Origin: Pseudogymnoascus verrucosus
Taxonomy: Eukaryota
Assembly (NCBI GenBank): GCA_001662655.1
Contig: KV460286.1
DNA length: 34,666 nucleotides
Reading direction: 5' to 3' (one strand)
A program made the position numbers and the translations under genes. The notes beneath the pieces were generated by a model, which saw only the letters and a list, made by a program, of their open reading frames with translations, ran no database searches and had not been told where the DNA came from. Of this stretch, positions 5,039 through 34,666 are shown piece after piece. Position 1 is the stretch's first letter; every line of letters starts with the position of its first letter.

Positions 5039-5461
5039 TTAGCTTGATGTGAAGATGGGTTTGGGGGAGCTAGTCCCCCCCTATACGAGTAGTAGTAGAT
5101 ATTATACACTTGAACCAGCACCCTGGGGACATCTCTTTCTAGGAACATCGAATATCTTTATGGTTAGATAACCTATTTCTGTCTATTGATCCATTCTCGA
5201 GCAAGCCACTCATCAATCAATGTATGTAAATAAATCATCTGTAATGAAATTAATTATTAACACGAGCCTGATAGCATCGTTTCAATATATATTGGAGGCT
5301 AGATACATGGGACGAGTGTAGCCCATTAAGTTCAATACATAGTTGATGTAAAATAAACAGTTATAAACGGCCCCGTGTATTCCACCCAATCACCCAAGAA
5401 ACACTTCAATTCCGAAACCGATCTCCAGGCCCATCCGATGATGTGATCTTCTCCAATTACA

Positions 5462-8395: not shown

Positions 8396-9706
8396 ATGCA
8401 TTCTGTTACGGCATTGGTTGCCCTTGCGGCTGGCCTTATCGGCCAATCTCTAGCCATGCCTCTCATTGTTCATCCCGGAAATGCTCATGATATTATCATC
8501 ATCCCGGAGGAGATACATGATGGAATCCTCGTTGGAGGGACGGCTGCCGAAGGGGACGGACAGTCCACGTCCAACCCCCAGCTAGGTCTGGTTTTGCAAA
8601 ACAACTATGGTGCCGCTCCAATCAACGTGTATATCACCGGTCAAGATTCAAGCGGTGGCATCGTTTTTGTCCTTCCCGATGGAACGTTCTATTATCCACC
8701 AAGCACGACGTCTACGACCCCAGTGTTAATTACTGAAAACGTTGCTGTCCCTCTCGGTGGCAAAGGAAGCGCAACTTCTCTGTCCTTCCCGGATTATATC
8801 TCGTCTGGTCGCATCTGGGTCGCCGCGGGGGACCTGAAGTTCTACATTGTTGACGCCGGTGGCAGGGCGGGGCTTGTTGAACCGTCGTCAACCAACCCCA
8901 CCGACCCTAGCGCCGGTAGCGATTGGGGATTTGTCGAATTGACGAATAATGCCGGTGGTATCTATGCCGATGTCAGCTTTGTTGACTTTGTTGGAATGCC
9001 TCTGGGTCTCTCACTGAAGTCTCGGGACGGAGTCCAGACTGTTCAGGGGACATCCACAAATGCTGTGTCGGAAGTCTGTTCTGCCTTGCAAGCACAGGCG
9101 GCTATCGATGGTGCGCCGTGGGATGCGCTCTGTGTGAAAGATGCGTCTGGAAAACTTTTGCGTGTCATGGCACCTGCCGATTATATCACCCTGGATAACG
9201 GAGCGTTCAGTAATTACTGGACCGACTACGTCAACCAAGTCTGGGACCACTATACTTCCAACACGCTGACCATCGATACTCAAACCTCGAACGGGAAGGT
9301 TGCCTGCAGAGTGGTCGGCGATGAGTTAAAATGCGAGGGAGACAACCGTGGCTACGCTAAGCCTGGTCCTGTTGATATCTTTGGCTGCGACCGTGGACCA
9401 TTTTCTATTGCAGAGAACGACGGTGATATCCACAGAGCTGTTGTTCCAAGGCTGTGTGCAGCCTTTGTCCGTTCGACTTTGCTCATTCCCGGAGGAGATG
9501 TGCAGCCAAGTCTGAGCTCGGAGAACTACTATACGGTGTCTCCTACCAACTATTACAGCAAATTTGTCCACGAGCACGAACTTGATGGATTGGGATACGC
9601 GTTTGCGTATGATGATGTTGCGGCCGATGGACAGCCCAGCGCGGCCGGGTTGGTGAACAACCCGAACCCCGAGGTCTTGACCGTTATTATCGGTGGTCCT
9701 GCATAG
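8396..9706 (+). CDS. Secreted endo-beta-1,3-glucanase, glycoside hydrolase family 64, 436 aa, intronless
   Basis: Signal peptide MHSVTALVALAAGLIGQSLA. GH64 motifs SGRIW, EPS..NP.DP....WGFVELT, SFVDFVGMP, RLCAAFVRSTL and TNYYSKFVH......GYAFAYDDV. Confidence 0.92.
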   Translation: MHSVTALVALAAGLIGQSLAMPLIVHPGNAHDIIIIPEEIHDGILVGGTAAEGDGQSTSNPQLGLVLQNNYGAAPINVYITGQDSSGGIVFVLPDGTFYYPPSTTSTTPVLITENVAVPLGGKGSATSLSFPDYISSGRIWVAAGDLKFYIVDAGGRAGLVEPSSTNPTDPSAGSDWGFVELTNNAGGIYADVSFVDFVGMPLGLSLKSRDGVQTVQGTSTNAVSEVCSALQAQAAIDGAPWDALCVKDASGKLLRVMAPADYITLDNGAFSNYWTDYVNQVWDHYTSNTLTIDTQTSNGKVACRVVGDELKCEGDNRGYAKPGPVDIFGCDRGPFSIAENDGDIHRAVVPRLCAAFVRSTLLIPGGDVQPSLSSENYYTVSPTNYYSKFVHEHELDGLGYAFAYDDVAADGQPSAAGLVNNPNPEVLTVIIGGPA

Positions 9707-10474
9707 TGATCTTGAGCTGTGGTCGATTTCTCCTGTCCATATATGCCGCCATTTTTTGTATATATTCAATGCCTGTCATCTGCAAATATTTTGTCTTTGT
9801 GTTTGGCTTTTCGTTGTTGGGTTGGCCAGAGTACAGGTCATAGACATATTCTCATATTTGCCAACTACATAATCTGCCACCTAAATTCGCCATATAAATG
9901 ACTCATTACCTTAAAGTATGGTTCAATTTATGCCTGTCAGCTCAGAAATATCATATAATAGTGATTGCAACAACGACTGCGTGCACCACCATCATGATAG
10001 GAAAATTCTAGATAATGACTATTTTCATTGCGAATAACGGTAGTTATGGTACGACCTGAGGGTCTCTCATATGCCACCATAGACTCTAGATAATTAGGCA
10101 TCCGACCGCCCTGCCATATACAGTGTATGGCCCCCCAAAGTGATAAATACGAGAAGTGAGAAAGCCACAATTAGGCCTAACGCGGTAGTGATCTCAGGAG
10201 TAATGAGGTAGAGTCTCACCTACGGCCCTAGGCAAAGAAGCCACGCGCAAGGGCCTTGACATGGGCATCCGTAATGAGGCGTTGTACTCTGCCACTTTAC
10301 TTCTATGTGAAAGCACATATGATTTTTATGCAATGAATAGGCGCAACGCTGATTTAGCTTGCTCCACTACCAACTCTACTTATCCCCTGATAGGTGCCCA
10401 CTGTATCGTATTTCTCACCCGAGCTGGCCATACACTGTACAAGTTCAAACTTCTCATAGGCTTGCCAACTCAAT

Positions 10475-13400
10475 CTAGACCCCATCCGGGTCCAATCCTG
10501 GCATTGCTGGTAACTGTGGGTCAGTGCCAGTGGAAGGGCCATCCCCCATTGCATTTCCTCCATCACATGTATTGAACCAGGTCCTAGCCTCGTTGGTGAA
10601 GGTACCAAGGACATTATGCTGGTCGGCTCGATTGTCGCCGTTGAGTTCGGGGTAATAAACACATGTCCCCGCAGCATTTCCGGTAAAGGCTTTGCCCTCG
10701 TTACTCCACAGGAACTGTGAGCCTCCTACTTCCTGGCGGCCACCGTTGTAATAGACCGTCCCGTCACCGTTGAATTTGTCTGTCCAAATTAGATCTGCCT
10801 TGCCATCTCCGTCGGCATCAGCAAATTGGAAGTTTGCCCTATCAAGACCCTCGGTATGCTTAAACTGGTCTATTACCTCCCAGCCTGAGTCACCATTTAC
10901 CCAGCCAGTGGTACGACCATCCTTTTGCATACACAGATAGTCGGCCTTCTTATTGCCCGTGACATCAGCAAAGTGAACGGGTATGTCGTGAATGCCGAGA
11001 CCGCGCTTTTCCACGCAAGATAGTTCTGTTGCTGGATTGCCGAGATACGACCAATTCCAGGCGTGGGTCTCTCCGTAGAGGTTTCTCCAGACCTCCACCT
11101 GATTGTTTTCATCAGGATTTGTCCAGATAATATCGCAAAACCCATCACCATCCCAATCGACCAGATGCAGATCTCGTCGGTCCAGATTGCGTCCGCCCGC
11201 AGTTCATGCACTGCGGGCGGACGCAATCTGAACTGCGGGGTCAAACATGGTTGCCTCTGGGCCCCAAAAACTTTGCCCATCACCAACCTCGCCCAACCCA
11301 GCGTTTGGATGGATTGTCATTTGCCCAGTTGACAAAGTCCAGACGTAATCCTCCCTGCCGCCAGAGTGGCCCATCATATTACAGTATTTATTTCCGTCGG
11401 CTATATGATGCAAGTAAGTAGGTGTTGTAGTAATGCCATAGAATGATAGTTGGGCTTCGGCAAAGGGGCTTGATTACCTTTCAACTTCGTGGATCCATAT
11501 CCAGCATTCTTCCATACCTTAACTTGAATGTCATATTTGTCGCCATTTCGTGTGTGTTCCATGTATACATAGTCATGGCGTCCCAGCAAGCCAAAGGACT
11601 CCAACTCGCCGTAGATGCGAGCAAAGTGAATCCTATCACGGATTCCCGCAACGCCCATGCCGAGATGAGTTGGTCCAGAGCTACTCCCAGAGAGGAAGCC
11701 CTGCCGCCAAGCAACATTAAGTCCGTCGCCTAGCTCCCCTTTCTGGCAGCTTCGCGAATTTGTATAGGTGTAAACTTCACCTTTGTCGCCCACCCAGATT
11801 CAGTCATCTCGGCCCTAGTCACGTTGTATTAGTTTCCTGCATTGTTACAGACAACAGTTGAGAGTCTTACATCGCCGTTTATATCCACAAACCGAACACC
11901 GTTCAAGTCACCTATGTTATTGCCAGTATTCCGGCTTGTCTTCTATTCTCGTTGATACAAGTTAGCCTTTTATTTCATATAGAAGTGCAGGAGAGAAAGA
12001 TTGTGTTATCTTACGTATTCCGCCATTTCGCCAGCAGGATATGTCGCCAGCCGCATTAGAGGCACAGTAATCGGCACGTCCATCGCCGTCTATATCAGCA
12101 AGGCGTATATTAGACTGATCATAGCCGGGCTCAGAGATCTTGATAGAACCTATAGAAGTGAATGTCGGGGAACTTCCACTTGAGGGGCCGTTGTTAATAG
12201 AAGCGAAAGCCTCCCCGTCCTTTGCGATGCAAACGAAATCGTCCAGTCCATCCCCTATGTTGTGCAATATTAGCTGCGAAACCCACCTCTCTTAATAATA
12301 ACTATATTTCGGAGTGAGCAGGGAAAACTTATTACATACCGTTAATATCCACAAAATTTACTTCTGATATTAAACAGTTGTCATGAACGGTCATGTCGTC
12401 AATTTTGGTAAACCGCGGGAAACCTCCACCATTGTTTTTATAGACGGCGTACACGACAGTGCCATCAGGCTGGTCAACCCATCCTACGAGATCATCCCGA
12501 TCCCTTGAGAATAATTTTGCAAAGAACCACTGGCCTCGATCAAAATTACTTGAGAAATCGAAGACCGAGCCCATTCCTACACTACTATGATAGTAGATAC
12601 CGTCATCCAGGCCGTTTACTTGCTGGGTGAGGCCGCCGGCAGATACCCCATCTCCTGGTTTCTTATGGCAGTCCTCATCGATTTTGGAGATGTTCGGTGG
12701 CTGTAAAAGTCCATCGTTTCTAGCTTTGTTGATGGCAGCCCACCACACGTAAGCCATTTTGGCATAACCCTGGTCATTTGGGTGGACTAGATCACCATAG
12801 TCGGTAGGATAGCTTAACCAGCCATTACCTGCTACTGGAGGGTCCATATCAGCGAGAACTATGCGCACTCCGTCTGCTTGCATATCTTTGACGAGGTTTC
12901 GGTACTGGTCGTTCACGCTACCACGGGGTGCTTCAGTATCTCCATTTGCAGACGGAATAAGTGTTGATAGTATAATTGTGGTTCTATCCCACCCAGGTTG
13001 GCCAAGAATCGTTTGTATCAAATTTTTCATGCGTGCACCGGCGTTTGGAATGTCGATATTTCCTGTGCAGTCATTTGTGCCCGCATTGATGGTAACAACA
13101 TTAGGATTGAAGTGGTAAGAATTTTCAGCAGCAACCCTGACCTAATCTATGATGTCTCCAGAGTGTGCCTCAACGTCCTATGGCTACTATTAGTGCACTG
13201 TATATCAATGTAAAGATTTCCATTACTAACATTATCTTGCATGTCGCCATTGTTTTTGCTTCCAACCATGTCAACATTCCAGCCCTTTAACCTTAATTGG
13301 TCACGTAGCGGCTTCCGATAACTATTCGGGCACCTAGTTAGTTACAAGCCGTGAAAACTGCCAGAGAAAGAGACAGCAGCTATATGAATTAAGCTCTAGA

Positions 13401-13675
13401 GAGAATTACCCGTTTCCAGTTGAAGAATATAGGCCCCAAGTGATTGAGGCTCCAAGAGGCAAGATTCTTAGATCCACCATATCGGCTTTACTAACTAGGT
13501 TAAAGTCATTCTTATTGTCGAAACTTTCAATTCGAGTATTATTGAATCTATCCATCAGGTCCTCATGGGTACGGAAGGCTGGACTACCAGTGGCAAAGCA
13601 TGCCACATAGGCTAGGATACATAGCGAAGATAAAAGGAGTCGTATAGAATGGCTGGTCACTTGTTTGGTTCTCAT
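10475..13675 (-). pseudogene. Disrupted secreted SGNH/GDSL hydrolase (carbohydrate esterase family 3-like) with C-terminal FG-GAP/VCBS-like repeats; 7 exons (13675-13410, 13321-13231, 13177-12340, 12254-12015, 11942-11871, 11814-11478, 11400-10475)
   Basis: Six canonical GT-AG introns. SGNH blocks LRILPLGASITWG, GYRKPL...VDMVGS, NAGTND and DLVHPNDQGY. Repeated D-[IW]-[ND]-G-D-G-x-x-D motifs. Lesions: in-frame TAG 13144-13142, frameshift with TAA 11919-11917, TGA 11802-11800 and TGA 11206-11204. The spliced length, 2770 nt, is not a multiple of 3. Confidence 0.88.
11183..11230. repeat. Perfect 21-bp inverted repeat with 6-nt spacer inside the esterase pseudogene
   Basis: CAGATTGCGTCCGCCCGCAGT (11183-11203), spacer TCATGC, then ACTGCGGGCGGACGCAATCTG (11210-11230). 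Confidence 0.97.
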
Positions 13676-15561
13676 GCTTGTAGAAAATTAGCTAAGCGGT
13701 GGCCAAGCTCAACAGCGTCGGGGAGTTTGCTGGTAGTCTTGTATTTCTACTCTGGACCAGAAGGTAGTTCTATGGTTCTTTATATAGCTCCCTGCGAGAG
13801 ATCCCGTCGGCATCTGTGGCGTCTATAATCTCAAGCCTCGAAAAAGCTTGGGACCTAGACTTGATGGATTGCGCATAAAGCTACCCATGCACACGCCTGC
13901 GCCAAATGCCCCGATGTGCCAATGAATACGCATATGCCACCCCAAAAGTGACAACTGGGAGCCCCACGCTATTGGAATACTTCGGCCAGGCAGTGCAGTG
14001 GAGACGAGCATAATTGACGGATAAGATTAATAGATCCTCTCCATCGGTCAGGATCGCTTCCATGCCTGCGACGTAACAAAGGCGGCAATGGCATACCATG
14101 TCATTAAAATAAGCCAAATAGGCCTCGGGGCGAATACTCGTTGAGAGTAGCTCTGCTAGGTTATCCCGCACCATTCCCAAGGCCTGAAGTCTTCAGACCC
14201 CTCAGCCTAGTACTAATCTTAGGAGGTTTGATGTGCCCTGGATTCGAACATGGTTTGTATTCCTATGGTCTTAAAGGCAACGTTTGTCGGCCGTGGGGCC
14301 AACACTAAGTTCTTGGCATACTACAACAGTATGCGCAGTTGACGCAGTATTAAAGGTCGGCAATTAAAAGAAGCACCGTGAACCTTATTGTTTAGTGACT
14401 ATGCGAGTTTGGCGCCCTGATGTGGGGAATATTACAGGCTATTTTTACCTTGCCGACAAAAACCGGCGCCGCTCACTAACCCCACATGGACCCTTTCGTT
14501 CCAGAATCCCACCTTCAATTGTTTCAAAAGTTAGGGCCCATCCTGCCTGCACGTACCTCTCAATCAATTCTTACTTTCCCCGCTTCCTTCGGCCTCTATC
14601 TGTCCCCGACGGCGCTAGGAAATCCAAATAACCCTGAGGTATCGGCCCTTTTCTTCAAGCTTAGGTGGTTTAAACTTTCACAAGGTAACATGTAGGCGCT
14701 AGAGATCGCTCTTATGCGATGTCGACAAATGGCCGCCCAACTAACAGACGCCATAACAGTTTATGTTACGGCTCATATATCCGACCATATGTTGTAGTAG
14801 TTCTGCCTGCTAATTTTACATAATCACAGATTGCCTCGTCCACTCCTCGTCCCCCATATCCGCTAACTTTAGCCGTCCCGATTTTTTCCAGATCAAGTTC
14901 CAGCCCTCCTTGTTATTAGAGACCAGACGGATTCTTTTCTTGCTAGGAATTGAGCAAAGTCTTCTCTTTGCTAGGGATTGAATGTGTCTCCTTCTGCTTG
15001 CATCTCTTCTTTGGAATTTAATGAGATGGGCTAAACGAAGCACTCTCACATCATTTTCGTGTCAGCATCGCGGAGTTTGATGGTTTTTAGCTTACGTACA
15101 TACGTACCATGGGTTTAGATTTCAGCGGCGGAGAGCCTAAATATGATATCGCTGACATTAATCGAGACCTTGAGAGAGTGAGAGATCGATACTGTCAGCT
15201 GATGGACCACCAGGACCATAGCGCAGGGTGTTGGGGATAATGCCGCAGCCCGGAACCTGCCATGGGATTGCAAAGGATTAGCTGACGAATATAGTACAAA
15301 TTGGAGCTTATTCCTACCGTAGAATAGGTAGTCGAATCAATTCCCTTTCCTGAGACCGTAAGATTCCTATATTGGCTAGATCATTGTGGATGCGCGGCCC
15401 GTAATTTAGTGAGGGGGCCGCGAATCCTGATCAACAGGGGTGGATATAACTGAGGTAGGAATTGCCTCATCCCCTCGTTTTGACCTCGTGGAAACATTTG
15501 TATGCACGCATCCCTTCTCTTTGACTAAATAGATCATCATTACTTAAAAATAAGAGACAAG

Positions 15562-16467
15562 ATGTTGGAATTAACTACCCCGAAGACTGTGCTAGTGATC
15601 GGTGCGACTGGGAAGCAAGGCGGTGCTGTCATTGAGAACATCCTAGCTTCTCCTCAAGCGCATTCCTTCAACATCGTCGCGGTGACCCGCAATGCGACGG
15701 GTCGAAAAGCTCAGAAGCTCGCTGCCCACCCTAACGTGTCGGTTATTGAGGGAAACTTAGCAAATGTAGACGACATTTTTAATAAAGCCGGGCCCGTATG
15801 GGGAATCTACAGCGTCCAGATCAACTCGGACGTCGAAGAACAGCAAGGGAAGGCCATGGCGGATGCTGCCGTTATGCATGGCGCTCAGCATTTCGTTTAC
15901 TCGTCTGGAGACCGTGGTGGTCCTGAACGATCGCCCAATAATCCCACCTACGTCAAAAACTTCGCTGCAAAGCACGCCATTGAGAAGCATCTTCAACAAC
16001 GGGCCGAGAAGAGCCCCCAGCAAATGACTTATACAATCCTTCGCCCGGTGACCTTCTTTGAGAACCTCACCACAGACCTTCACGGCAAAGGGTTTGCCCG
16101 TATGTGGGAGCAACTAGGCAGCAAGAAGCTCCAGATGGTATCAACAAAGGATATCGGCTGGTTTGCAGCTCAGAGCTTTCTTCAGCCCGACAAGTACAGA
16201 AATGCGGCCTTGACGCTCGTGGGCGATGAGCTGACACAACCTGAGGCCAATGTTATTTACAAGGAAGTTACAGGACAGACTATGGCCATGGCAGCTTGCC
16301 CAATCGCGAGTGCTGTCAAGTTTGTATTAAAGGGGTCTGTAGGGGACATGTTCAAGTGGTTTGAGGACGAAGGGTATGGTGGTAATGTACAGGAATGCCG
16401 CAACGCCAACCATAACATGCAAGATTTCGCTGCTTGGCTGAATGAGAACAAAGGCAATTTTATGTAA
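15562..16467 (+). CDS. NmrA-like family NAD(P)-binding Rossmann-fold protein, 301 aa, intronless
   Basis: VLVIGATGKQGGAV nucleotide-binding motif, AVTRN, EEQQGKAMADAA...GAQHFVYSS, K.AIE and TILRPVTFFEN. Confidence 0.92.
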   Translation: MLELTTPKTVLVIGATGKQGGAVIENILASPQAHSFNIVAVTRNATGRKAQKLAAHPNVSVIEGNLANVDDIFNKAGPVWGIYSVQINSDVEEQQGKAMADAAVMHGAQHFVYSSGDRGGPERSPNNPTYVKNFAAKHAIEKHLQQRAEKSPQQMTYTILRPVTFFENLTTDLHGKGFARMWEQLGSKKLQMVSTKDIGWFAAQSFLQPDKYRNAALTLVGDELTQPEANVIYKEVTGQTMAMAACPIASAVKFVLKGSVGDMFKWFEDEGYGGNVQECRNANHNMQDFAAWLNENKGNFM

Positions 16468-20174: not shown

Positions 20175-21364
20175 TTATTCAATGGGCGCTAGTTGCCGTG
20201 GGGCCCGCTCCCATACGATTATGCTCTTCTGTCGGTTCAACGCATCTTTCCTATGTTGTATGAGATCATCTCCCCAGACGGGCTCACCACTATCATCGTT
20301 TCCTGTGATGATAGGAGATGCTGGTGGTACATCAGGCAAATCAGGCGTGAAATCGACATGCCTTCGAGGTGCATCATCTTGACATTTCCGACGGCGAACC
20401 TACTCGTCCAACAGTTTTCGGAATTCCCCAACCTCGCAGTCTAGCTTGCACTTGAGTGGCCAGCTTTCAAGGGCTAGCACCGCGTCTGGATCCTGTTCTC
20501 TGTGTTCCACGCGCCGGAAATGGTCATCTTGCGAGACAATTTCGTACAGAGTGAAAATGACGCCGCTGACATCGTTCCGCTCGGGGGGAAGCAGCTGGGT
20601 TGGCCGATACGAGCAGCACGGTCGAAGTCGAAGAGAAGGAGGTTGTCGGTTTTGGGATCGACGAGGAGATTCCGCGGGGCTATGTCTTGATGCGCAATTC
20701 CAAGGTCGAAATTTAAGTAGTCTACCACGTCTAACAGTTGCTGGAGCCAAGCTAGTTTAAAGACCCTGTCTTTATTTTGTTCGATGGTGCCGTTGTGGAT
20801 GTATGGTGTTGTAAAACCAAGAATACGGGGTTCTGCGTCGGAGAGAACCACACGGTCAAACGGGAGTATGTTTGGGTGCCTAGGGAGAGCTTTGGTGAGA
20901 TGGAGTTCGTTCCGTATCCAGTGCCTCGTTTGATAGATCATGTAATACTTGACAGCAAACTTCGAGGTGCCGGAGTCGTCCACATAGCTAACCAAGTCGA
21001 CACTTGGGCCAAGTCGATCCTCTTCAGTTAATTGCGATAGGTGGACGGTGAGACAGTTTTGAAGGGAAGGCGCAGTAGCAAAACGTGGGTAGTGGGTAGT
21101 CAAGGTACGGTCATCCTCTGGGTCTGACGAAACTTTGACCAAAAGGCCTTTATCGTCTACTGTTATAGATTGAACGGTTTGGCCAAGCTGGCCAACGTAG
21201 CACTTCAGAACATCAATGTCGACGTTTTCATCGGGCGGTATAAGTGATACTGGGCCCTCGATTGTATACCATCGGCGTTGATCCCAGTCGATAACCTGAC
21301 CTGTATGAACGTTTCCCTTGACTTGTTCACCGACCACCCAAAATCTGTCTGACGGCTCGATCAT
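20175..21364 (-). pseudogene. Protein kinase-like gene, disrupted by a frameshift and a premature stop
   Basis: Kinase motifs HPNILPFDRVV, HQDIAPRNLLVD and LFDFD. The frame breaks at the G6 run 20583-20588. The shifted frame continues ERNDVSGVIFTLYEI...LLDE, hits TAG at 20402-20400, then reads on VRRRK...WERAPRQLAPIE to TAA at 20177-20175. Confidence 0.8.
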
Positions 21365-22091
21365 GGTGGATCGCTGGAGAACACGGGATATCTATTGTAG
21401 TGTTAAACACTACCTATTAAGTCGTAGAACAACGAATCTCTTGCGCCGTTGAGTTGATAAAGGGAGAAGCTTCCGATCTCTAGTGTGGCACCGAGAGACG
21501 CGGGGAAGAACAGGGGTTGTATAACAAATTCGCCTACTACGGTCGGGCGCTCAACTCTATAATACTTGAACCAGCTCGTAACGACAGGCACCAATGTCAG
21601 AAATAGAAGTTATGATGATTACGGGGACCGAAGTAGTCATTGGATCCGCTGTGAAGCTCGACCAGACAGCTAAAGACCAACGACTTAGTACGTAGAGTGG
21701 GAAGCTTTAAGAAAAGTTAGCAATATCAATTCGTCGTTCTACCTGAATTTTCAAAAGCATCACATCCAGTTCCAGGCACCATGGGTTATTTTTGACATAC
21801 ATAACTGAATTGAGATAAGTTTTTTTCCAGATCATTCACCCAAGAATAAGTAAAGATAAAAACCAATAAACAAGTAAATCCATCCGACAAATGCTCCCAC
21901 CAAGAAGTAAAACACCATCCCCTTCCATCCCATCCCGTCCCTTCGCCCCCAAAAACCCCCCCAACGCTCTATCCAAAGAAACCGACAGAAGCTAAACAAA
22001 AACGGGGAAGCTAGAAACCAAGACCCCAATAACTCAACCAAGAAATCACAATCTAACGAAAGAATACTAGCAAACACCTCAGCACCCCCCA

Positions 22092-25000
22092 TCAAACCTC
22101 CTCCTCCCGACCCCCATTTCTCCCCCTCGCCATCCTCTCCCCCCAAACCCTCTTCCCAGCCCTCAACTCAAACACCTCGAACCTCTCCCCGCCCTCCACG
22201 ACCTCAAGCGCTTTTCGGATCTTCGTGCGATACACATCCACTACCCAGCATTAGCCTTTGCCACTTCCGTCATCACCAGCATCGCCATCAACCCCCCTCC
22301 CAAAAGAAAGGCCAAGAAAAGAGAAGTAAAGAAAAAGAAAGGAGAGAAAATACTCACAACATCTCTGCAGCAGCACCTTCCGTCCCCCCACCCTCTTCGT
22401 CCCCACCCACGCCAACCTCCACGCCAACTCATTCAGCCCCCTCTCCCTCGCCCTCCTCGCCCTCCCCATCCTCGGAATCACAACCTCCATCCCCATCCCC
22501 ATCCCCCCCCTGGCACCCTCACTAGCCCTCAACCCCGGCCACGCAAGGACCCTAACACCGACCCCTTTCCCAACATCCTCCTCATCCTCCCCATCCTCGC
22601 CCACAGGCTTCTCCCACACCGCGCGCCAGCTGCGCACGAACACGCTCGCGGCTTTACGGACACTGTCCGGGATCTCAGACACGCGGACGCTGGCGAGGTC
22701 AGCGCGGATTTTGTGTTTTGGCGCCAACCCCCCGCCTGTCCCACTCGCACCACCCACACCAGCTGAGCTCGAGGCGTGTGTGGTGGTGAGGGCGGTGGAT
22801 GTGGAAGGGGTGGAGGAAGGGGATTTGGTGGCGGTGGAGATGGGGATGTGGAGGTATTTGGGGGATTTGCCGGGGGGGAGGATGGGGGGAAAGAGGGAGG
22901 GGTTGAGGGGTTCGGAGGGGGGAGGTGGGGGGGCGGTGATGGTGGTGTTAGCGGTGGCGGGGGGGTGGATGGGGAGGGTTGTTGTTGTCGTTGTTGCTGT
23001 CGATGATGCCGGTAATGCTGGGTTCCGTGGGGGGTAATTGGAGGCCGGGTCGATGGACATGGACATGTCGTCGACGACGTTGTTGGGGGAGGGAGGGCCT
23101 ACGGAGACAGGACGGCGTTAGCCTATTTCTACACAACAATCCTCAAAACGTGTTCAGACGGATGACGTGACAGACGATATGAGACGACAGGTAAGACGGT
23201 GTGGATGGATGGAATAGACAGAACGAGCCAGCCAGCGCAGGACAGCCCCCTCTGCGCCCGCCGCGACGGGTATGTGTGTGTCTGCGCCGCCACAAAAAAA
23301 GGCAAGCAGCAGCAAAGCACAACAGGGCGACCAGTGCAGCAGCTCGGCTCCGTGGGAAAATTTCTAGTATACAAGCAAAATCCGCCTCCCCTTTTCCCAA
23401 TTTCCCTCTTTTCCATTTCCAGATCCTTAATCCTATTCCGCCCTGACATATCCCTCATAGCACCAGCACTAGCACCAGCCACCCCCACCAAGTGACGCCG
23501 TTCCGCGCGCCACGTTGTAGACGGTATCCAGCGAATACAAGTAAAAAAAAAAAAACGAACAAAGCAGGAAACAAGATGTGCGGCAGAAAGACAAATGTGT
23601 AAGAGCCGAGAGAATCGAACAAAAAAGCCAAACAGAATCAATCAGATTGAGATGAAACAAAATCCAGCCCGCAGGCGCCCTAGAGAAGCAGAGTTTGAAA
23701 GAACAAGAGAAGACAAAAATGAGCCACATCGGGCCGAGCGCAGCGCGTAAGAAGGGAAGTAGATGATGGTGGTGCACGAGCACGGAAATCTGAGGGGGGT
23801 CCAAACAAAAACATTTGCAAATGTATGACGAAAAGATGTGTGTGTGTGTGTGTGTGGTATCATAACAAAGAATTTTTATCGCAATCCTCAAATTTTAACG
23901 TGAGGGAGGGGGGGTTTGGGCTGTGTGAAGGGGAGAAAAGCATCACATCTGGTGAAACATACCACTTCCGTCATCGCCATTCGGCGCCGCTGCTCCATCG
24001 GCATGCGCTTGGTGATGATGATGCATCTGCGCGCCCATCTTCCCCTGTTGCTGCTGTTGTTGCTGCTGAACCGGTAGCGGTCCCGGTGGTGCTCCCGGCG
24101 GCAGGCCGAGCGGTGCCGCGTGCACGAGCTTGCGGGAGTTGATCTTCGCCATGCGGCGGACGCGGCGCGAGCGCAGGCGCGGGTCCTGGTTGCTGTTTCG
24201 CCACGAGTCGACGGCGCGCTGGATGAGACCGCGCTTCCCCCTCAGGCAGGGGTTCAGCTCGGCGAGGGCCCAGCCGACAGTGTTGCACTCGCTCTCGTAG
24301 ACGAGGCGGTTGCCACGGTACTGGTCCTTGGAGCAGCAGGCGCGGGGGTAGACACAGTTCTCGGTCTTGAATTCGGGGGCAAGCGAGTCGACGGCTACGG
24401 ACTCGACGTCGCACCGGATGGTGTACTCCATCTTGACGCGGTCCCGCGAGTACTCAAAGGCGATCCATTGGACGCCGTTGCCGTCCTGGCGGACGACGAG
24501 AGGGGTTGTGGCTGGGATTGGCCCAGGAGCTGCGGAGGGGTTGACGCCGGTCCCTGGGAGAGGTGGTGCGCCGTTGGTGGCAGGCGGGATGTGCTGGTGT
24601 GTGTGTGGGGGTTGTGCTTGGCCCTGTGGGGGTGCTGGGGCGGCGCGCTGCTGTTGTTGTTGGGGTGGGTGCTCCATCTTGGTGACGCGCGGGCTGCTGG
24701 TCATCTGCTGTGGGTGCTGGCCGGGGTGCTGCATCTGGTGCTGCGCCTGTGGGTGTGACATGAGCAGATTCGACTGCGGGCCCATTCCCTGGTGATGCTG
24801 TGGTTGCTGCTGACCGTACGGCGAGGGGTTACCCTGCTGCGGCATGGGCGGGTATGTTTGGGGTGGTGGTGGGTAGTACATTGGTTGCTGCTGCTGCATC
24901 TGCGAGGGAGGCTGGGAGTAGATTTGGCGACCGTGCTGGTCGTGGCCCGATGGTGATGCTACGGACGCGGGCGAGTTCGATTGAGGGGTGTGGTAGATCG

Positions 25001-25418
25001 GGGGGTAGAGAGGGCGCGCCATGCCTGCGGCTGCGATGATGTCGGGCGTGTCTGCCGCTGCGCTCGTCAGTCGCTGCTGTTGTTGCGCAGGCGGCGCCGT
25101 GGGATCTCTCGCAAACTCACCTGCGGAGGTATAGGTGCCTGTCGCGCTGGGCGTGCTGTATGGGCTCGCGTGAGTGTAGTAGGGCACGTCTTGCGGGTGC
25201 TGGGCAACCTGGCCGGTGCCGTTCTGGCCGTACTGCTGCGGCAGGCCGTGGGAGGGCTGGTAGGCACCGGAGTGCTGTTGTTGCTGCTGCTGCGGCGCGG
25301 GCGGCTGCTGCTGCTGGTGCACGACGCTTGAGGGGCGCTGGTGCGGCAGTTGTTGCGGCGGCGGGCCCTGCGCGTGGTGCGGCTGATGCTGCTGTGAATA
25401 ATACTTGTCAGTCACCAT
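22092..25418 (-). CDS. Conserved fungal Q/P/H-rich putative regulator with two copies of an uncharacterised domain (DUF8032-like, from recollection); long model 758 aa, 4 exons (25418-25121, 25051-23963, 23098-22358, 22240-22092)
   Basis: Introns 25120-25052 (GTGAGT..CTGAC..CAG), 23962-23099 (GTATGT..GCTAAC..TAG) and 22357-22241 (GTGAGT..GCTAAT..TAG) are all phase 1 and give 2277 nt with no internal stop. Domain 1: WIAFEYSRDRVKMEYTIRCDVESV...NCVYPRAC...CNTVGWALA...KRGLIQRAVDSWRN. Domain 2: HKIRADLASV...SVFVRSW...LNELAWRLAW...RKVLLQRCLDVYRT. Both parts are confidently coding; their joining is inferred. Confidence 0.75.
23099..23962 (-). other. Putative 864-nt intron, far longer than the 53-117-nt introns elsewhere in the window
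   Basis: Donor G|GTATGT at 23962, branch GCTAAC near 23117-23122, acceptor CGTAG at 23099, compatible phases. Contains (TG)10 at 23837-23856 and A13 at 23543-23555 (+ strand). Confidence 0.7.
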
Positions 25419-26924
25419 TGCGAATTACTCTCAATGAGCAAAAACAACCATTGACAGGTGATAGAGTCCTCGCGTCGTGCGCTTGCAGAGATGGAGCAAG
25501 GCGCGCGGAGAGGGGGGTCGTGAGAAGAAGCGTCGACTATTTAATTATTTATTCGGGAATGCGCGCGCGTGCGACTTGTAGCTGTCGCGATGGGAGGAGG
25601 TGTGTTTGTCGACGACTTGACAAGGGACTTTTTTTTGGGCGTGTGGAAGGGTCTGGCCGGGTTATAGGTCTCGTCGAGTGCTTGGCGGTAGACTGATAAC
25701 GAGAGAAGGGTGCGCGTGGAGTCGGCAGGATGTTTGGGTGAAGAGAGAGCGTCGAGTCGTTCAGGTCGTGGGACAAACTGAAACGTCGAGTCTTTTATTG
25801 AGTAACTCGTTCGAAGTAACTATATGTTGCAAGGACTCGGGGTTGGGGTAGCGCGGAACGATGAACCCCGATTTTTTCGCGTTTTTTTTTCTACCCTTTG
25901 TCGCGTCGCGTAACGTGAGAAACGTGGAGATAAGTTTTGATGGTGCTTGACTCGACAGATAGTGAAATCGGGCCGTGTGGAAAAGGACCGTTACGCACGC
26001 GTTACTTGACGGTGGGATAGGTAACGAGAGTTGTGAATAGCTTCACTTTTTGGTTGATTATATTTGGCAGTGGCAAAACGTGTGGTTGCGATTGCTTGCT
26101 CCTGTGGGTAACAAAAAGTTAATGCCTGTCGCGTTTTGACGTTGATGGGGTTGAGTGGTGGTAGTTGTGGTGGTGGAAGGTGGGTGGGTGTGGGCAGCAG
26201 GGTAAGGTAAGGTAGGGGATGTTGATGGGGGATGGGAGGGGGGATGGGGGGAGTAAGTACCTTGCACGACTACTGCGCGGTGCGGGAAGCGTCAGGTACC
26301 TTGAGGATTTTTTGTTTTGGGCGGGCGGGTTCGGCTGTGTCTGGCGTGTCTTGCGTGAAAACTTGGTAGGCGGGCGGTGTGTGGTGGCACTGTGAGCGAG
26401 CGACAGTGGAGAGAAGAAAAAGAAGAGTGTGGGAAGGTGGGAGGGGGAAGGGGGTAAGGTAGTGAGGTAGTAAGGTAGTGGAAGTGGAAGGGTTTGTCAA
26501 CGGTCGACCATGCCATGCGGGAAGCAGGGGACATGGGTCGCTTTAAGTATGGACGGTGGGCGTGGGAAAGGGACTGGGGGGGGTGAGGATGGATGGGGAG
26601 GGGGGAGGGGGAGAGGAGAAAGGACCGGGGGAGACGGGATTGGGAATTTGAGAGGGGAGGGGTGGGGGAAGGGATGGGATGGGATGGGAGGGGGGAAGGA
26701 AGGAGCAAAGATAGGTGTGGGTGTGGGGGGGTGTATGTGGTTGTGTGGGTGTGGATGTAGGGGTAGGTGTGGGTGTGGTGGATGGGATAGGTGAGGGTGA
26801 GGGTGATTGTGGGTTGGCTGGTGGCTGTTGTTGGTTGTGGTTTTTGTGGATGGTGGTGGGTGGAAGTAGCAGGTGGAGGTGGAAGTAGTAGGTAGTAGCA
26901 GAGTAGTAGAGGAGGCCGTAAGTA

Positions 26925-26954
26925 GAGTAGCAGAGTAGCAGAGTAGCAGAGTAG
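26925..26954. repeat. 8-bp tandem repeat (GAGTAGCA)x3.75
   Basis: Read directly; degenerate GAGTAG units also occur across about 26890-27150. Confidence 0.9.
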
Positions 26955-27550
26955 TCAAGTAGCAGAGTGGACTGTCTGTATAGCTGTATAGTAGCAACAG
27001 AGCGCACAGTAGTCGACCGTTGAGATTAATCCTGGCCCTTCTTCTAGCCGGCGGGCGCGTCTTGGGAGCGGCGGATGGCGGATGCTGCCTGGGATGTTGA
27101 TGTGGATAGAGTAGATTGAGCAGATTGAGTAGAGTCGAGTAGAGTTGAGTACAGCCAGAGTACACCCACAGTACACCCCCCCCGTACAGCCAAAGTACTC
27201 GAAATTGCAGGGGATTGCAAGGAGTGAAAGGTGGGTCCCGTACTCGAACCAAAGGGGACAGGGGTGTTTGGGGGAGGTTAGTAGTTAGAGACAGGGGTGC
27301 GTCGACAGCCAGAAAAAGCGGGTCGTGGAATGACAAAATATGGCAGGGATACGAGGAACGAGCGAGGGAGGGAGGAGCCAGAGAAGTAAGACATCGTCGT
27401 AGTAAGACACGCCAGAGACACGCCAGAGACAAGACAAGACCCGCAACGCAACATCCCTCTCACCCGCCGTACATGTGAGTAGGAAGATACAGTAGGAAAC
27501 AACGCAGCACACACAGACGCACACGCCACCCCCCCAGACACGCACGCAGG

Positions 27551-27660
27551 GAGAGAGAACCCTCAGTCCTTACCTTGCCTTGCCTGTTTCCCTACTTGCT
27601 TCTGTGTATCGAGAGAGAACCCTCAGTCCTCACCTTACCTTACCTTGCCTTGTCTTCCCT
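27551..27660. repeat. Local direct duplication, 60-bp period
   Basis: GAGAGAGAACCCTCAGTCCT is exact at 27551-27570 and 27611-27630. Each copy is followed by a variable (CCTTR)n tract. Confidence 0.9.
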
Positions 27661-28419
27661 CCCTGCATCCGTCATCCCTTCATCCCTCCCCTTACCTCCA
27701 TAAACTCCGATCCCCCAATCCCGACCACCCGCCAATTCACCATCAACACCCATCTTCATACATACGCCCCCAACACACCTCACTCACCACATACGTACTC
27801 AGCACACCCACCACTCTATCTCTCTTCACGTGATAGGCCAACTCTCCCCACCCACACACACCCACACTCGTACACTCACTCTACAGTACACACCTCCCTC
27901 TACACCCACACCCCCCATCCCACCAATCCCCTCGCCTCTCTCCCCGGCCACCCGCATGTCAGCCGCTTGGAGGCGTCCCGAGGAGAGGCCACGGCTAATT
28001 CGTGGTGCGGTGTCCGACTATGTGCAGTCGCATGCAACTGTATAGTACAGTGCAATACATACATTACAGTACTCTACTCCGTGGCTATGTGTGACGGATA
28101 GACGCTTTTGCGAGTCTGGTTTGGCAGCGGCCGAACTTGCGAGTGGCGGCTGGGGGTGATGGGTGATGGGTGATGGGATGGGAGGGGTGGGTGAATTCTG
28201 ATTTGCTGGGTGACGTGACGTCTATCTATCTCTGCGCAGATCGCGATATCTGTGGCGGCTGAAAGGGATGGGAGGAAGGGAGGGAGGCAATAGGTCTGTG
28301 TGGCAATCTCAGATATATTAAATGTGCTAGAAACATTACCATCCACACTCGACTACGCAATCGCGACCTCACCGCCGCCACAGCGTGTGTAAGCTACGAC
28401 CACAAGAAGTACTCACCGC

Positions 28420-28420
<1 letters not shown>

Positions 28421-28456
<36 letters not shown>
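28421..28456. repeat. (AAC)12 microsatellite
   Basis: Read directly. Confidence 0.97.
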
Positions 28457-28457
<1 letters not shown>

Positions 28458-31400
28458 GCACAGCACAGCACATGCACAAAATCAACCTCCCGCCTCCAAA
28501 AGTGGCAAGTCATCTCCGCCACCCATTCAGGCAGTTCTCTCCCTCTCCTCCGCCCAAAACACCCGCCCAACAAACCCCCCAATCACGTTATCCCCCATCC
28601 CACGCGTCCTCGCGAATCTAGACCGCCCACCCACCTGCGCCGCCAACACCCACAGGGCAGCGATGCGCACATTCCCACAGTTTCTAGCTAAGTATAGCCA
28701 CATCCATCCCTGCTCACACGCCTCGCCGTGGTCGAACAGTGAAAGTAGAAGGGGCGGGAAAAAACGGTCGCCGCGGCGGAGGCGGCGCTCATCCCTATCT
28801 CCATCTTATGCACATCCACATCCACCCATCGTCAAGTTCAAGGAAGGCAGGCAAGTGGGTGGTGGATAGGTAAGGTAGGGGGTCCCCCCGGTCAGAAACG
28901 GAAGGTGTCCTCTCTTCTCTCTTCTCTTCTGTCCTAGAGTAGGTAGGGTAGCACGCACATGGACGGAAAGTGGGTAAGTGGGGCCCCGGTCGGCCCAGCT
29001 TTATCCCGGCGCGACACGAACCCTCCCTCCATCACAGGCTGGCTGGATAAAAACAGCAACAGGGTGAGACAAAGCAAGACAGGACGGACGGTCTGTAAGC
29101 GCGCCCTCCCCCCTCCCCTTCTGCGATCGTCGGCGGGCATCGGGGGCGCCGAGGGGTGTGTGTGTGTGTCTGTGTGGTGGTAGTAGTGGTAGTGGTGGTG
29201 GTGGTGGTGGTGGTTGTGGAAAGCAGGGGGGAGAGATGTCGATGCGATGCGAGTACGATGCGATGCGCTTTTTCTGCGATGCGGATGCGAGGGGGACGGG
29301 GTTGGGGTTGGTGGGAATTTGATGGGGAGGGGGATGGGATGGGGGATGGATGGGGATATTGGGGTTACATGGGCGCGCGGCTGAGGGGAGGGTTTGGTAA
29401 TTGTATATGTAGAGTAATTTATGGACTTGGACTTGGGCTACTACGGTACTAGATGTAGATGTATTCGCATCGTTGTACGTACGAAGCTGTGTATCACACT
29501 TCCATCCCCTTCGAGTACGTACGGGCACGGCGGTACGCAGCACAAGCGAACGAGGCATTTCACGACGGACAGGACGGACATCGGCGGATGGGGGACGGAT
29601 AGACAGGGAAGGAACGGCGGACAGGCAGGGAACGACCGACACGATAGACAGACAGCTAGGGTAGGGTGATGTAGTGTACAGGGGAGTTCTCTAGGGCGGA
29701 AGAGGCAGGAGGGCCGGGGGTACAGGTGAGTTACTTGCGCGGTTCTTCTCTCTGAAGAGGGCCAATTAGATGGATGCAATGTGGAGAGGAAGGGTGGGGG
29801 GGAGCTGTATCTCAAACAGAGGGGTTGATTAGCCGGGGACTTATTTACTTGCGTGATGGCGGGTGTTGAGGTAGGGGAGGGGGGATGGATGGAGGGAGGG
29901 ATGTACCGGTTGATGGGGAGTGGAGTTGGGCAGGGTGTGGTGTGTGTGTGTGCACTGCACTACGGGTTTTTAAATTCGCGTTGGATTGCTTGGGGTGGGA
30001 GTTGTTGCGAGGGAGGGGAGGAGGTGAGTGGTGATGTGATGGATGGTGGTAGTGGAGACGAATCGAGACCAGACTGGACTGGATGGATGGATGGATGGAT
30101 GGGTAGATGGGCCGATGATGGGGAAATCATAAGTCTGCTGTACTATAGTTAGTACTTACTTTCAGTGTGCACTTCCGCGGAGGTGTCTGCATCTACTCTA
30201 CTGTACTAACTTCGTAGCTATTCTGCTCGTTCTCTATCGGCCCATCTTATCTCATCTCATCTCGAGCGTGCGTGCGTATCGCGTTATCACCGCCATCCAG
30301 CCAGCCAGCAGCCAGCAGCCAGCCATCCATCCAGCCAGCGACCCAGACCGACTATCCCATCCCCCCGCCGTACTGTAGAATAGAGTACTACTACTGCACA
30401 GCACAGCACAGCAGCACTCAAGCACCACACAACATCCCATACATACCATCCATCCCACACATACATACACCCATATCCCAGCCGTCCCAGAGATCTAAGA
30501 TAAGATCGCGCGCGCGCACACGCACACGCACACGCACACGCATACCACCTTCCCTACCACCCACGAGCAAGACCAGGCAAGGCAGGCTTCACATCCGCCA
30601 CGCCGCCCGCCGCACCTCGCCCATCTCATCCTCAACCTCACCCTCGCCCATCACCTATCCACCCCCTTCCCTCCCGCGCTTACCCAACCCAGCACACAAG
30701 CTCACCCTGTCCACCCCATCCTATCCTGTCCACCCAGCCCATCCCTCCCTCTCCTGTCAGCGCCGAACCCTCCGAACCCGTCCCTCCCCTCCCCATCGTG
30801 TCCTAGCTCCCTCGTGGGGCGCTCTTGGCACACCTCACCCACCACCCTCCCTTCCTTCCTCCCCGCCAAGACACGCACAGTCGCACGATCCTGAAACGGT
30901 CGCAGTGGGGGGGGAGAGAGGAGAGGCGCGTACGTGGATCCCTGTTCGCGTGAGTGAGGGAAGGAAGGGGTGGAGTGGGGCGGGGGGCGGGGGGCAGGGG
31001 GGTGGTGGCTGTTGCCGGGCTGGATGGATGGCTGGGCTTGTGGATCGGCGGTTGATAATTGTGTAGTAAGCTGGATGGCGTTGCAGGGAGAGGTACGGAG
31101 GAGGGAGGCGTTTGCCGTATAGAGGAAGGGTACTGTAGGGCGTCGTATAGAGGATTTGGAGTACAGCGGCGGTGCGAAGTACAGTATACGTACGGTGCAC
31201 AGGATGCGCGTATTCTTCGCACCTTTGCAGACAGACAGCACCTTCCAATCCCACCCACTGCGCAAATATAACTCCCCAAAAACAGCACAGCGGCAACATG
31301 CATACCGCCGTGCTGACCATCTCGCGCCGGTCGGTCGTGCCTGCCCCATCACCGCATCCTTCGCGCCATCCTCGACCGAAGCATCACCGACCGTTCCATC

Positions 31401-34400
31401 CCAGGTAATCTACGCATACATACAGTACCCCAAGTACGGTAGTAGTACTACACGCACATGCTTCCAACCCATCCCTACATCCACCAGCCAGCCAGCCAGC
31501 CCAAAAACATAAGCACCCAGATAATGCGGACCCTCTTTCCCTCCCCCCTCCCCTACCTCTCCCCAAAAGAAGCAGACCTTCACGCCTCTGCGGCCTCCCT
31601 CCCCTGCCCCCCTGTCTTGGCTGTCAGATGCAAGATGGCAAGAATAGAGCCCCTGCCACCTCCCCCCCAAGCCCAACCAGGCGAAACGAAAACAGAGTGA
31701 AGTGAAGCGAGTGATAGCCGTAGTTAGTAGCCCCTGGCATCGTAGCCGCCCCGCTGTACCCACAACCACGCCGAGGTTAACCCTAACGCCCCTCCCATCA
31801 CAGGTGTGATGTACGTACGGATGTGTGCGAATTCGACAGGACGGAGCAACCACTATGGGTATGGATATGGGTTATGGGATGGGCGGGCAGGGGATGGGGA
31901 TGGGAATACGTATGCCATCCCTGTTGTATAAGAGGAGTCTGATATGCCAAAACGCGCACGTCAACCGGAAAACATCCACCAAAGAGAACGCGTCGTTGCT
32001 CTGCTTTTTCCCCAAGTTAGACAGTTAGACATACACCCTGACCCCACCCTCAAACCGCGTGCCAAAAACGCGCAAATAGTGGTAAGATGCTATTATCTCA
32101 CTCACTCATTGTTGGAGATGAGACAAATCGAGAAAGAGAACAAGAAGAAAAAAATCAGCAAACGTACCTCGCACGGTCCCCTGCTCCACCAAGAACCGGT
32201 GTGAGATCCCGGGAGTCTTCCACACGTCGTCGATATGCTTTAGATTACCCTGGCGGCGCTGAAGAAGGGATTGATACCCGTTCATGCTAAACACGTGCAA
32301 GTAAACCCACGCAGCCCACGCACCCACACCCCAACCCAACCCACATACACCACAAACAGCTCCCCTACCCTGCCCTGCCCGCCTCAACGGCGGGACGAGC
32401 GGCGCCAACAGGGTGAGCTGCCCTGCCCTGCCTTGCCCTTCCCTTCTTTCCCTACCCTGTGTTGCCCTGCCTGTCCTGTCCTGTCCTGTCGCCTTGCCAG
32501 CTCGCAGGGCGGCGGATACTCATAGCTCCGTCAACTCCGCGCCCCTGCCCTGCCCATCCTCACTTTTCCCAACTCCACTCCCACTCCACCTCCCGGTGCG
32601 GTGCCGGTCCAGTTCAGGGCCCGCCCCGCCTTGCAGATACCCATCCCCCCTTCCACTATACTATACGCTGTGCCAGGGCCGCTCTGACTGCTGCGGGAAT
32701 GGGGAATAATAGCGAATGGGAAAATTGTTGCACTTGCACCAGATTCGATTCAAACACCCATCCCCATCCAGCGCTGACGCGGACAGGGCGGGCGGCGCAT
32801 GGTGCGTTTCGAGGTGATGAGGTCTAGGCTTCTTCACAGAGTTGGGGGGGGGGGTGGGCTTGGATTGGGGGGGACTGTGCTTGGATTTGGACCTTGGGGA
32901 TGAAAATCGTTCGATTTACGGAACGGGGATTATTGATTTGGGGACCGAGAAAAATGTCGATGTGTTTTTTTGGGCGAGTCTTACGGATACTTGGTTTACG
33001 TATGGGTCTAGCACGTGTATTCCCCCGGTTTGTCATTCTCGGGCCGCGGGTATTTATTTGGTTCTTGTATGCACGGTACGGAGCGGCGGCGCAGCAGCAG
33101 CGGCGGGGAGGGCGTGAGTCGAGGCGGCGGGGAGAGAGAAGGGGCGGGTGAGCCGCTGCGACTTCTCACCGGTCGGTCGGCGTGGGCAAGCGCTGGTGCT
33201 ACGGCGAGGCGAGGCGGTTGATACTACACACACACAGACTGACCAACTAACAAACTGACTGACACGGCATAACAGTATCAGCATCACATCGCTCCCTCCC
33301 CAAGAGATGCGCGATCGTGTTCCATCCTCGGCACTCGCCAACCCTGCCTTACAAACCACCCCCTCCTCCATCTTGATCCCCTCCCTGTCCTGTTTATTCG
33401 ATGCCCCCTCCGTGCCTGCTTATCCGTGCCTGGCCTGGCCTGGTCTGTTCGCTGAATCCCTCCCTCCCTGTTTACCCCCCCGGAGCTCATGCTTATCACC
33501 ACTACTCCTGATATTCCTTCCCTGCCTATACCCCCCTTCCCCTCCCATTAGGGCTTACCAACCCCTTACACCACCCATCCCCTACCACCCCCCCAAAACA
33601 AATCCCCTCACCCCCCCTTACCAGCGCTTACACCTCTAATCTCCGTCCCCCCGGCCACATCGGCGCGGTAATACGGCCCGCGCCCTCACGCCGACAAAAC
33701 GGGGACTTATAGACGGGGATAGGGGTCTCGGGGCTGGGATGGGATGGCGTCAGAGCGGGTGAGGGTGAGGGGGCGGGATGGGAGATAAGACGTTCTTTGC
33801 GCGGGCCGGGTGCGGGTGCGGGATGGGGGTTGGGATGGGGGTTGGCTTGTGCGAGGGGAGGGAGGGGGACGGGATCGGGATGCATGTGCTGGGAGCAAGA
33901 GGGGCCGGCCCGAGGTTAGTGGTTGAGGATTTTTGGGGGGGGGAGATAGGGGGTGAGAAGGTGCAGGAGGGAAGGAGGGGGAGGGTATGGTGGGCGCGGC
34001 TTGGAGTGAGGCTCATGATTTTATTTGGACGTCGAGGCTGGTGTTGTTCGTTCGATTTCTCAGTTCGATGCCCTCCCTACTGTCCACTCCGCCGCCACTG
34101 CTGAAGCTTTCTCCTCTTCCTGCTCACCGGCGCAAAGGCATATAGCCTCGCGAGCTGTTGCACTTCGAGAGAATGAAGCGTGGGACATCTCACTGTCTAT
34201 CCGTGTTTACCACCTCGCCCCTTGCCTCCCACCTGTCCCTCCTCTGTCTTCCCGCGCCCAATGCCCAGCTGCCGGCCTGCTTTTTTTGGTTGTCCATCTT
34301 CCCACCGGCCTGGCGCTGACTGGACTTTAAGCCCCTGGGTTCCATTCCTCTCCTTTAGAGGCTATGGAATCCCATTGACTGCCTGTTCCACCTCCCTGCT

Positions 34401-34666
34401 GTGCGTCCTCGCCGACGGTAGCGACTGTCTGGTGAAAATGGGGATAGGGCAGAAAATGTTTGGTTGAGGTCCGGGTCACGGGGGACAGTAGGAAGAGCAT
34501 GACGTGGATGGGGGGGATCTCTCATGGGGATAGGAGGGGATCGTGGTCTGGATTGGAAATATCCGAGGTCAGGAGAGGAGGGGACAGTAGAAATTAAATC
34601 GGGAGACTGAGAAAAAGGGGGTATGAAAAAATTGATATTTTGGGCAGTGTTCGGCACGGATACCAA

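Follow-up and report, generated by a model that had tools for sequence, protein, structure and literature searches.

The window, a stretch of 34,666 nucleotides from Pseudogymnoascus verrucosus, carries on its minus strand two open reading frames (23943-25424 and 22251-23117) that belong to a single gene with four exons. Joined together, the exons at 25418-25121, 25057-23963, 23098-22358 and 22240-22092 leave an open frame of 760 amino acids. Coding exon 1 (25121-25418) starts with the ATG at 25418, the same methionine with which the proteins of congeners begin, and encodes a Q/P/H-rich segment; in relatives, the 5' UTR extends to at least 25983. It is followed by intron 1 (25058-25120), which is 63 nt long, contains no in-frame stop and could alternatively end at a second CAG at 25052, making it 69 nt. 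Exon 2 (23963-25057) encodes a Q/P-rich region, a first domain and a His-rich linker. Intron 2 (23099-23962, 864 nt) has the form GTATGT...CTAAC...TAG, is in phase 1 at both ends and is either spliced or retained. Exon 3 (22358-23098) contributes a low-complexity linker and most of a second domain, with an unconserved ATG at 23066 inside it. Intron 3 (22241-22357, 117 nt), whose position is conserved in 17 loci, must be removed for the long form, which ends with its stop in exon 4 (22092-22240). When the donor of intron 2 is read through and the 63-nt intron 1 is removed, translation of the window gives a product of 470 amino acids with the C-terminus GMFHQM.

The earlier note on this DNA had proposed that a phase-matched 864-nt GT-AG intron fuses the two reading frames, and the junction was indeed recovered both in RNA-like contigs of relatives and in public gene models, one of which (P0296) has a junction identical to that of the window. 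The lengths given there for the two products, 758 and 468 amino acids, hold with an intron 1 of 69 nt, whereas the relatives' contigs splice 63 nt and thus give 760 and 470. The read-through tail GMFHQM with its stop at 23943 is present as described, and two public congener models of 470 amino acids end in exactly this tail. The fusion is already known to annotators, as the public gene models contain the fused form; among the best 120 matches to the first domain, 72 run well past it, most of them with a second domain, so that the fusion is the usual annotation. In a search of the genome, each of the two domains matched this one place only.

Around the gene, the roughly 9 kb upstream (25500-34666) hold no convincing gene, the longest ATG-initiated frame there being 215 amino acids and low-complexity-looking, among many simple repeats; an intron in the 5' UTR is possible near 26260-26102. 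Several orthologues (loci L003, L026, L046 and L069 and proteins P0041 and P0277) have alternative N-termini and an extra upstream coding exon (HRQ..YKEEP) located 1-2.5 kb away; an exon of the YKEEP type was searched for in the window and not found. More than one isoform is listed for the Botrytis models. The downstream neighbour is a protein-kinase-like frame at 20474-21391 on the minus strand (Pkinase, E 2.9e-8), and the region 4184-16467 encodes an MFS transporter, an SLC35F transporter, a GH64 beta-1,3-glucanase and an NmrA-like protein, as well as a GDSL lipase exon and, after it, an FG-GAP repeat exon, which gives a weak match to the TcdB mid-N profile, probably via its repeats.

The first domain (24129-24527, minus strand; residues 277-409) was identified as DUF8032 (PF26087). 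A protein search with it returned 1336 proteins; the best 120 of them, every one labelled PF26087, share 89-100% identity with it; the closest named proteins to the gene are from Pseudogymnoascus, and clear orthologues exist in model fungi, with records from Aspergillus and Botrytis. DUF8032 clusters in the Atlas match the domain at 0.88, an unindexed search gave 492 clusters, and the Atlas clusters lacking PF26087 yielded no usable match. The local Pfam scan assigned no family to the gene, nor to most of the homologues labelled PF26087, and the local copy may lack the model. Some DUF8032 proteins carry the wrong label ribosomal protein L24E. The domain contains 24 lysine and arginine residues in 133 amino acids and is modelled (pLDDT 86) as a beta-hairpin and three helices, of which the C-terminal one is basic and contains the invariant RSRRVRR. 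The PDB sequence search found no match, and with models of domain 1 and of the tandem, Foldseek returned nothing at E 0.001 and VIA a best Z of 4.0 for each, a result that does not prove a new fold. Literature searches with DUF8032, PF26087, locus tags and peptide words retrieved no paper, function or isoform switch; subscription journals and supplements, which may list an orthologue, lay outside this search.

The core of the second domain (22131-22718, minus strand; residues 592-748) is interrupted by intron 3 and is a degenerate DUF8032-like copy. Plain BLASTP of the two domains of the window gave no alignment, so profiles were needed; a domain-1 profile built from diverse homologues matched domain 2 with 30.9 bits (E 2.7e-9) and a further piece of 9.8 bits, and HHalign aligned the two with a probability of 99.3% (E 4.6e-20). 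In the AlphaFold model of P0007, strands and helices follow in the same order in both domains. The paralogy claimed earlier is thus borne out by the profile and HHalign matches, and two-domain homologues in other fungi are found among named records, in Geosiphon, Mucor, Basidiobolus, the chytrid Dinochytrium, Neolecta and Lipomyces, a distribution that makes the tandem form old. Whole-gene models with domain 1 only also exist (P0161, P0184 and P0202); Fusarium oxysporum has single-domain DUF8032 paralogues, and in other fungi the domain is fused to Zn2Cys6, C2H2 or PHD-like domains (for paralogues and fusions together: P0161, P0166, P0176, P0206, P0260 and P0306). Domain 2 of the window scored 93 bits, while the long matches among the best 120, 72 in number, have a median of 293, a gap that is partly built in because the profile was made from 60 of the 120 proteins picked by a motif absent from the window. 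Two other loci with a long intron 2 (603 and 725 nt) also have a weak domain 2, scoring 62 bits, in a copy truncated where its contig stops, and 55 bits. Judged by these sequence comparisons, domain 2 is a true copy of domain 1 that is decaying in this lineage. Predictions of a complex between the two domains, in which the alignment was not used, scored 0.00, 0.41 and 0.00.

Evidence for both forms of the transcript came from contigs of relatives about 90% identical to the window, in runs X6, X13 and X15 from three studies, which are counted as RNA-like solely on account of their spliced joints, no run being recorded as RNA. Intron 1 was removed at 25057/25121, with a loss of 63 nt, in contigs of these three of the four runs; from X1 came dispersed fragments of low depth without an informative joint. 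Run X13 contained both the 864-nt joint of intron 2 and the 117-nt joint of intron 3 (22240/22358), and its mismatches to the window, gaps aside, amount to 25 in 714 letters for pieces of the intron, 41 in 1096 for exon 2 and 66 in 533 for exon 3. In run X6, one contig lacking intron 1 crosses the donor of intron 2 and reaches 23593. Among metagenome loci, five contigs represent the short form (L006, L031, L036, L063 and L065), from five further fungi; they read through the position of intron 1, carry the tail and end within intron 2. In four of these, comparison with a genomic relative reveals the missing intron 1; L065 lacks a genomic counterpart spanning that intron. Seven others have intron 2 spliced out (L015, L022, L030, L046, L056, L069 and L073). 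The 72-kb genomic contig L028 lacks introns 1 and 3 and keeps intron 2 with its conserved start and stop, as does L057; the absence of intron 1 alone is therefore no proof of a transcript. In these relatives, RNA that is spliced elsewhere occurs both with and without intron 2, and the domain-1-only product claimed in the earlier note is supported by the retained-intron contigs and the conserved tail and stop, from which the protein itself would follow.

A candidate 3' end of the short transcript lies at 23205-23230, where contigs of three studies stop at 23205-23210; it is a weak hint, because contig depth cannot rank the parts of the gene and the assembly graph branches at 23210. No AATAAA was found in intron 2. 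Contigs of X6, X13 and X15 also run from the 3' end of intron 2 into exon 3, so that some RNA keeps the whole intron or starts within it. One X15 contig (record 18) has about 317 unlike letters upstream of 23275, where X13 has a second contig, and the stretch concerned has no second copy in the genome; the feature at 23210-23282 may represent an allele, a cryptic acceptor or a feature of another kind.

The strongest evidence, which the earlier note did not contain, is the nucleotide-level conservation of the 5' end of intron 2. It was measured in 80 metagenome loci plus the window, of which 55 have a full domain 1 and a short tail and 35 remained after removal at 90% identity or above; the mean domain-1 DNA identity in this set is 0.77, and, as the loci share ancestry, the counts do not represent independent observations. 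A donor element of 22 nt (23941-23962, minus strand), which encodes the GMFHQM tail and its stop (23945-23943), is conserved at 80-100% from +1 to +22 (about 90% overall) in the 35 loci, falling to about 0.4 at +23, and the donor consensus accounts for +1 to +6 only. Over +7 to +22, the mean majority-base conservation is 0.91 in intron 2 compared with 0.44 in intron 3 of the same 17 loci, and in domain 1 the third, silent base of invariant two-fold codons has a mean of only 0.69; moreover, all 33 histidine codons of the tail are CAC, against 96 CAC and 74 CAT among the histidine codons just upstream. Selection therefore operates at the level of nucleotides. It also maintains the stop, which is found 4-7 codons into intron 2 in all 35 loci, against 2-44 codons for intron 3, and indels in the tail are mostly of whole codons. 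A GMFHQM-like tail also ends 45 of the 48 short matches among the best 120, and named records with it come from Hymenoscyphus, Circinaria, Cirrosporium and Elasticomyces, which belong to different classes.

Two further motifs recur within the intron. The sequence (T/C)GATACC, at 23856-23862 on the minus strand of the window, is present in 25 of the 31 introns of sufficient length, where base shuffles predict 0.8, and the nine-base Puf4-type motif TGTA-N3-TA, with a window copy at 23365-23373 (minus strand), is present in 22 of 31 loci against 1.3 expected. UGUA can also serve as a signal for 3'-end processing. A shared RNA fold at the donor was considered and rejected, since pairing of the donor with ATACC exceeded 0.5 in 4 of 25 loci and a local hairpin appeared in 6 of 25; the sole Rfam match was a chance microRNA. 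Conservation of the length of intron 2, raised in the earlier note, did not hold, as 864 nt is specific to this lineage and lengths of 213-437 nt are found in 18 of the 21 introns that could be measured. In seven loci (L002, L003, L009, L011, L019, L026 and L035), a conserved CGCTT(A/G)CCGG-like motif, which is absent from the window and resembles the 5' end of U1 snRNA, was seen just upstream of the branch point of intron 2.

As for the origin of intron 2, seven genomic Pezizales-like loci (L016, L018, L045, L049, L051, L053 and L078) can be read continuously from domain 1 to domain 2, lacking both a stop and a GGTATG donor, and named proteins of Pezizales and Orbiliales have 35-45 extra linker residues, which in Pezizales start with G-x-M-L-H. 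The resemblance of this insert to the GMFHQM tail suggests that coding sequence of the linker became intron, as a lead only, given that the region is of low complexity, that aligners shift the insertion and that the direction of the change is unrooted.

The reading that we consider probable is that one gene gives two mRNAs, for either a two-domain protein of 760 amino acids or a domain-1-only protein of 470, with a role as a nuclear regulator inferred. Splicing of intron 2 would yield the protein with two DUF8032-type domains, and if the donor is left unused, translation would stop six codons into the intron. The retained intron would then be mostly the 3' UTR of the short form, whose RNA probably ends inside it. 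The 22 conserved nucleotides and GATACC may act as linear sites to which proteins bind and so restrain splicing; by slowing it they would let a share of the transcripts end within intron 2, where the Puf4-type site may tune the stability of the short mRNA. The invariant basic helix of domain 1 could bind nucleic acid, with activation by the Q/P/H-rich region; if domain 1 is the binding domain, the switch would set one versus two binding domains. For domain 2, the earlier note proposed that it may act as partner or antagonist. That the protein is a nuclear transcription regulator is slightly favoured, on the basis of the RSRRVRR helix, the Q/P/H-rich N-terminus (58 Q and 54 P in 275 amino acids), the fusions to zinc clusters or zinc fingers in 4 of 65 scanned homologues (Zn2Cys6 above the cut-off in two, C2H2/PHD below it in two) and the roughly 9 kb upstream without clear genes. 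Against it, 60 of the 65 have no other Pfam domain and one has TPR repeats. In this lineage, most of the function probably falls to the short form.

The same conservation could arise in a gene that makes no useful amounts of the 470-residue protein, if the intron-containing RNA stays in the nucleus or is degraded by NMD and the element merely sets the level of the long protein. This is unlikely, although positions +21 and +22, past the stop, are still conserved at 0.86 and 0.83, as expected of a signal that acts mainly at the nucleotide level, ATGT(G/A)A is kept where the stop has moved (L040 and L079), contigs span the whole of intron 2 into exon 3, and splicing factors have such switches (PMC4379411). 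Against it stand a Puf4-type 3' UTR motif in 22 of 31 introns, short-form contigs that end inside the intron in five of five cases, tail indels mostly of whole codons and a stop within seven codons, and a domain 1 that is invariant while domain 2 decays here. A further explanation, in which a decoy or additional donor (GT(G/A)A, from position +17) or else a structure in the RNA slows a constitutive intron and the retained RNA is only a splicing intermediate, is very improbable. The commonest bases at +17 and +18, G and T, each occur in 32 of 35 loci and the stops are always TGA or TAA, never TAG, but no joint from +17 was found in the contigs, the pairing and hairpin frequencies given above speak against a structure, and the contigs covering the intron are long, continuous and from three studies.

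The earlier note had envisaged three products, the third being a domain-2-only protein from the ATG at 23066, which in the window would be 285 amino acids long; an inner start or a cryptic acceptor in intron 2 could give it. The last ~130 nt of intron 2 and exon 3 are covered by unbroken contigs, and the X15 contig matches 23210-23275 only, near a CAG at 23282, before continuing in unlike sequence. Nevertheless, the pair of methionines concerned (codons 11 and 13 of exon 3) is absent from congener P0004 and has no counterpart in 19 other loci, the first methionine of exon 3 being scattered elsewhere (5, 35-66 or none), and full retention explains the crossing contigs; a third product is accordingly quite improbable, and the domain-2-only claim was not upheld.

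The two-isoform switch appears to be undescribed so far in the literature searched, and annotations list the gene as either 'fused' or 'short', by which the switch is hidden. The domain concerned is among the most conserved of the unstudied fungal domains, and conserved alternative processing that diversifies proteins is considered uncommon in fungi. Since clear orthologues exist in model fungi, isoform-locked alleles would be a direct test of a new regulator and of how the intron's first 22 bases control the choice between splicing and 3'-end formation. A bolder version, which we regard as rather unlikely, is that DUF8032 is a pan-fungal nucleic-acid-binding domain of new fold, that the gene sets its own valency through a linker-derived intron, the G-x-M-L-H coding stretch of Pezizales-type genomes lying at the very site of the GMFHQM intron, and that the protein may bind the intronic motifs in a feedback loop; if true, the choice between one and two domains would be set by a conserved intron in most filamentous ascomycetes.

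Compared with DUF8032/PF26087 proteins in general, domain 1 shares 89-100% identity with the best 120 of 1336 matches and domain 2 of this lineage is far more decayed. The Puf4 nine-base motif UGUA...UA is described (PMC4654594) from 3' UTRs of Leotiomyceta and Pezizomycotina, whereas here the putative site lies inside an annotated intron and is in a 3' UTR only if the intron is retained. Unproductive splicing at ultraconserved elements of SR and RNA-binding-protein genes combines a conserved alternative splice site with a premature stop (PMC4379411), and the present gene resembles it in nucleotide-level conservation at an alternatively used splice site and in the early stop, but differs in that the element is of 22 nt, no known RNA-binding domain is present and the truncated product keeps the invariant domain. 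A parallel is also drawn with yeast FES1 (Fes1S/Fes1L), in which, as summarised in PMC7491326, retention of a terminal intron exposes four codons followed by a stop and a poly(A) site, the position of the intron is conserved across species and splicing adds a nuclear localisation signal of 14-17 amino acids. As in FES1, the intron is either spliced or retained, with a few sense codons before the stop in all 35 loci; an intronic poly(A) site like that of FES1 is weakly hinted at here by the contig stops at 23205-23210. Relative to the FES1 arrangement as given in that account, splicing here adds about 300 amino acids with a second copy of the core domain, and the intron carries a conserved element of 22 nt.
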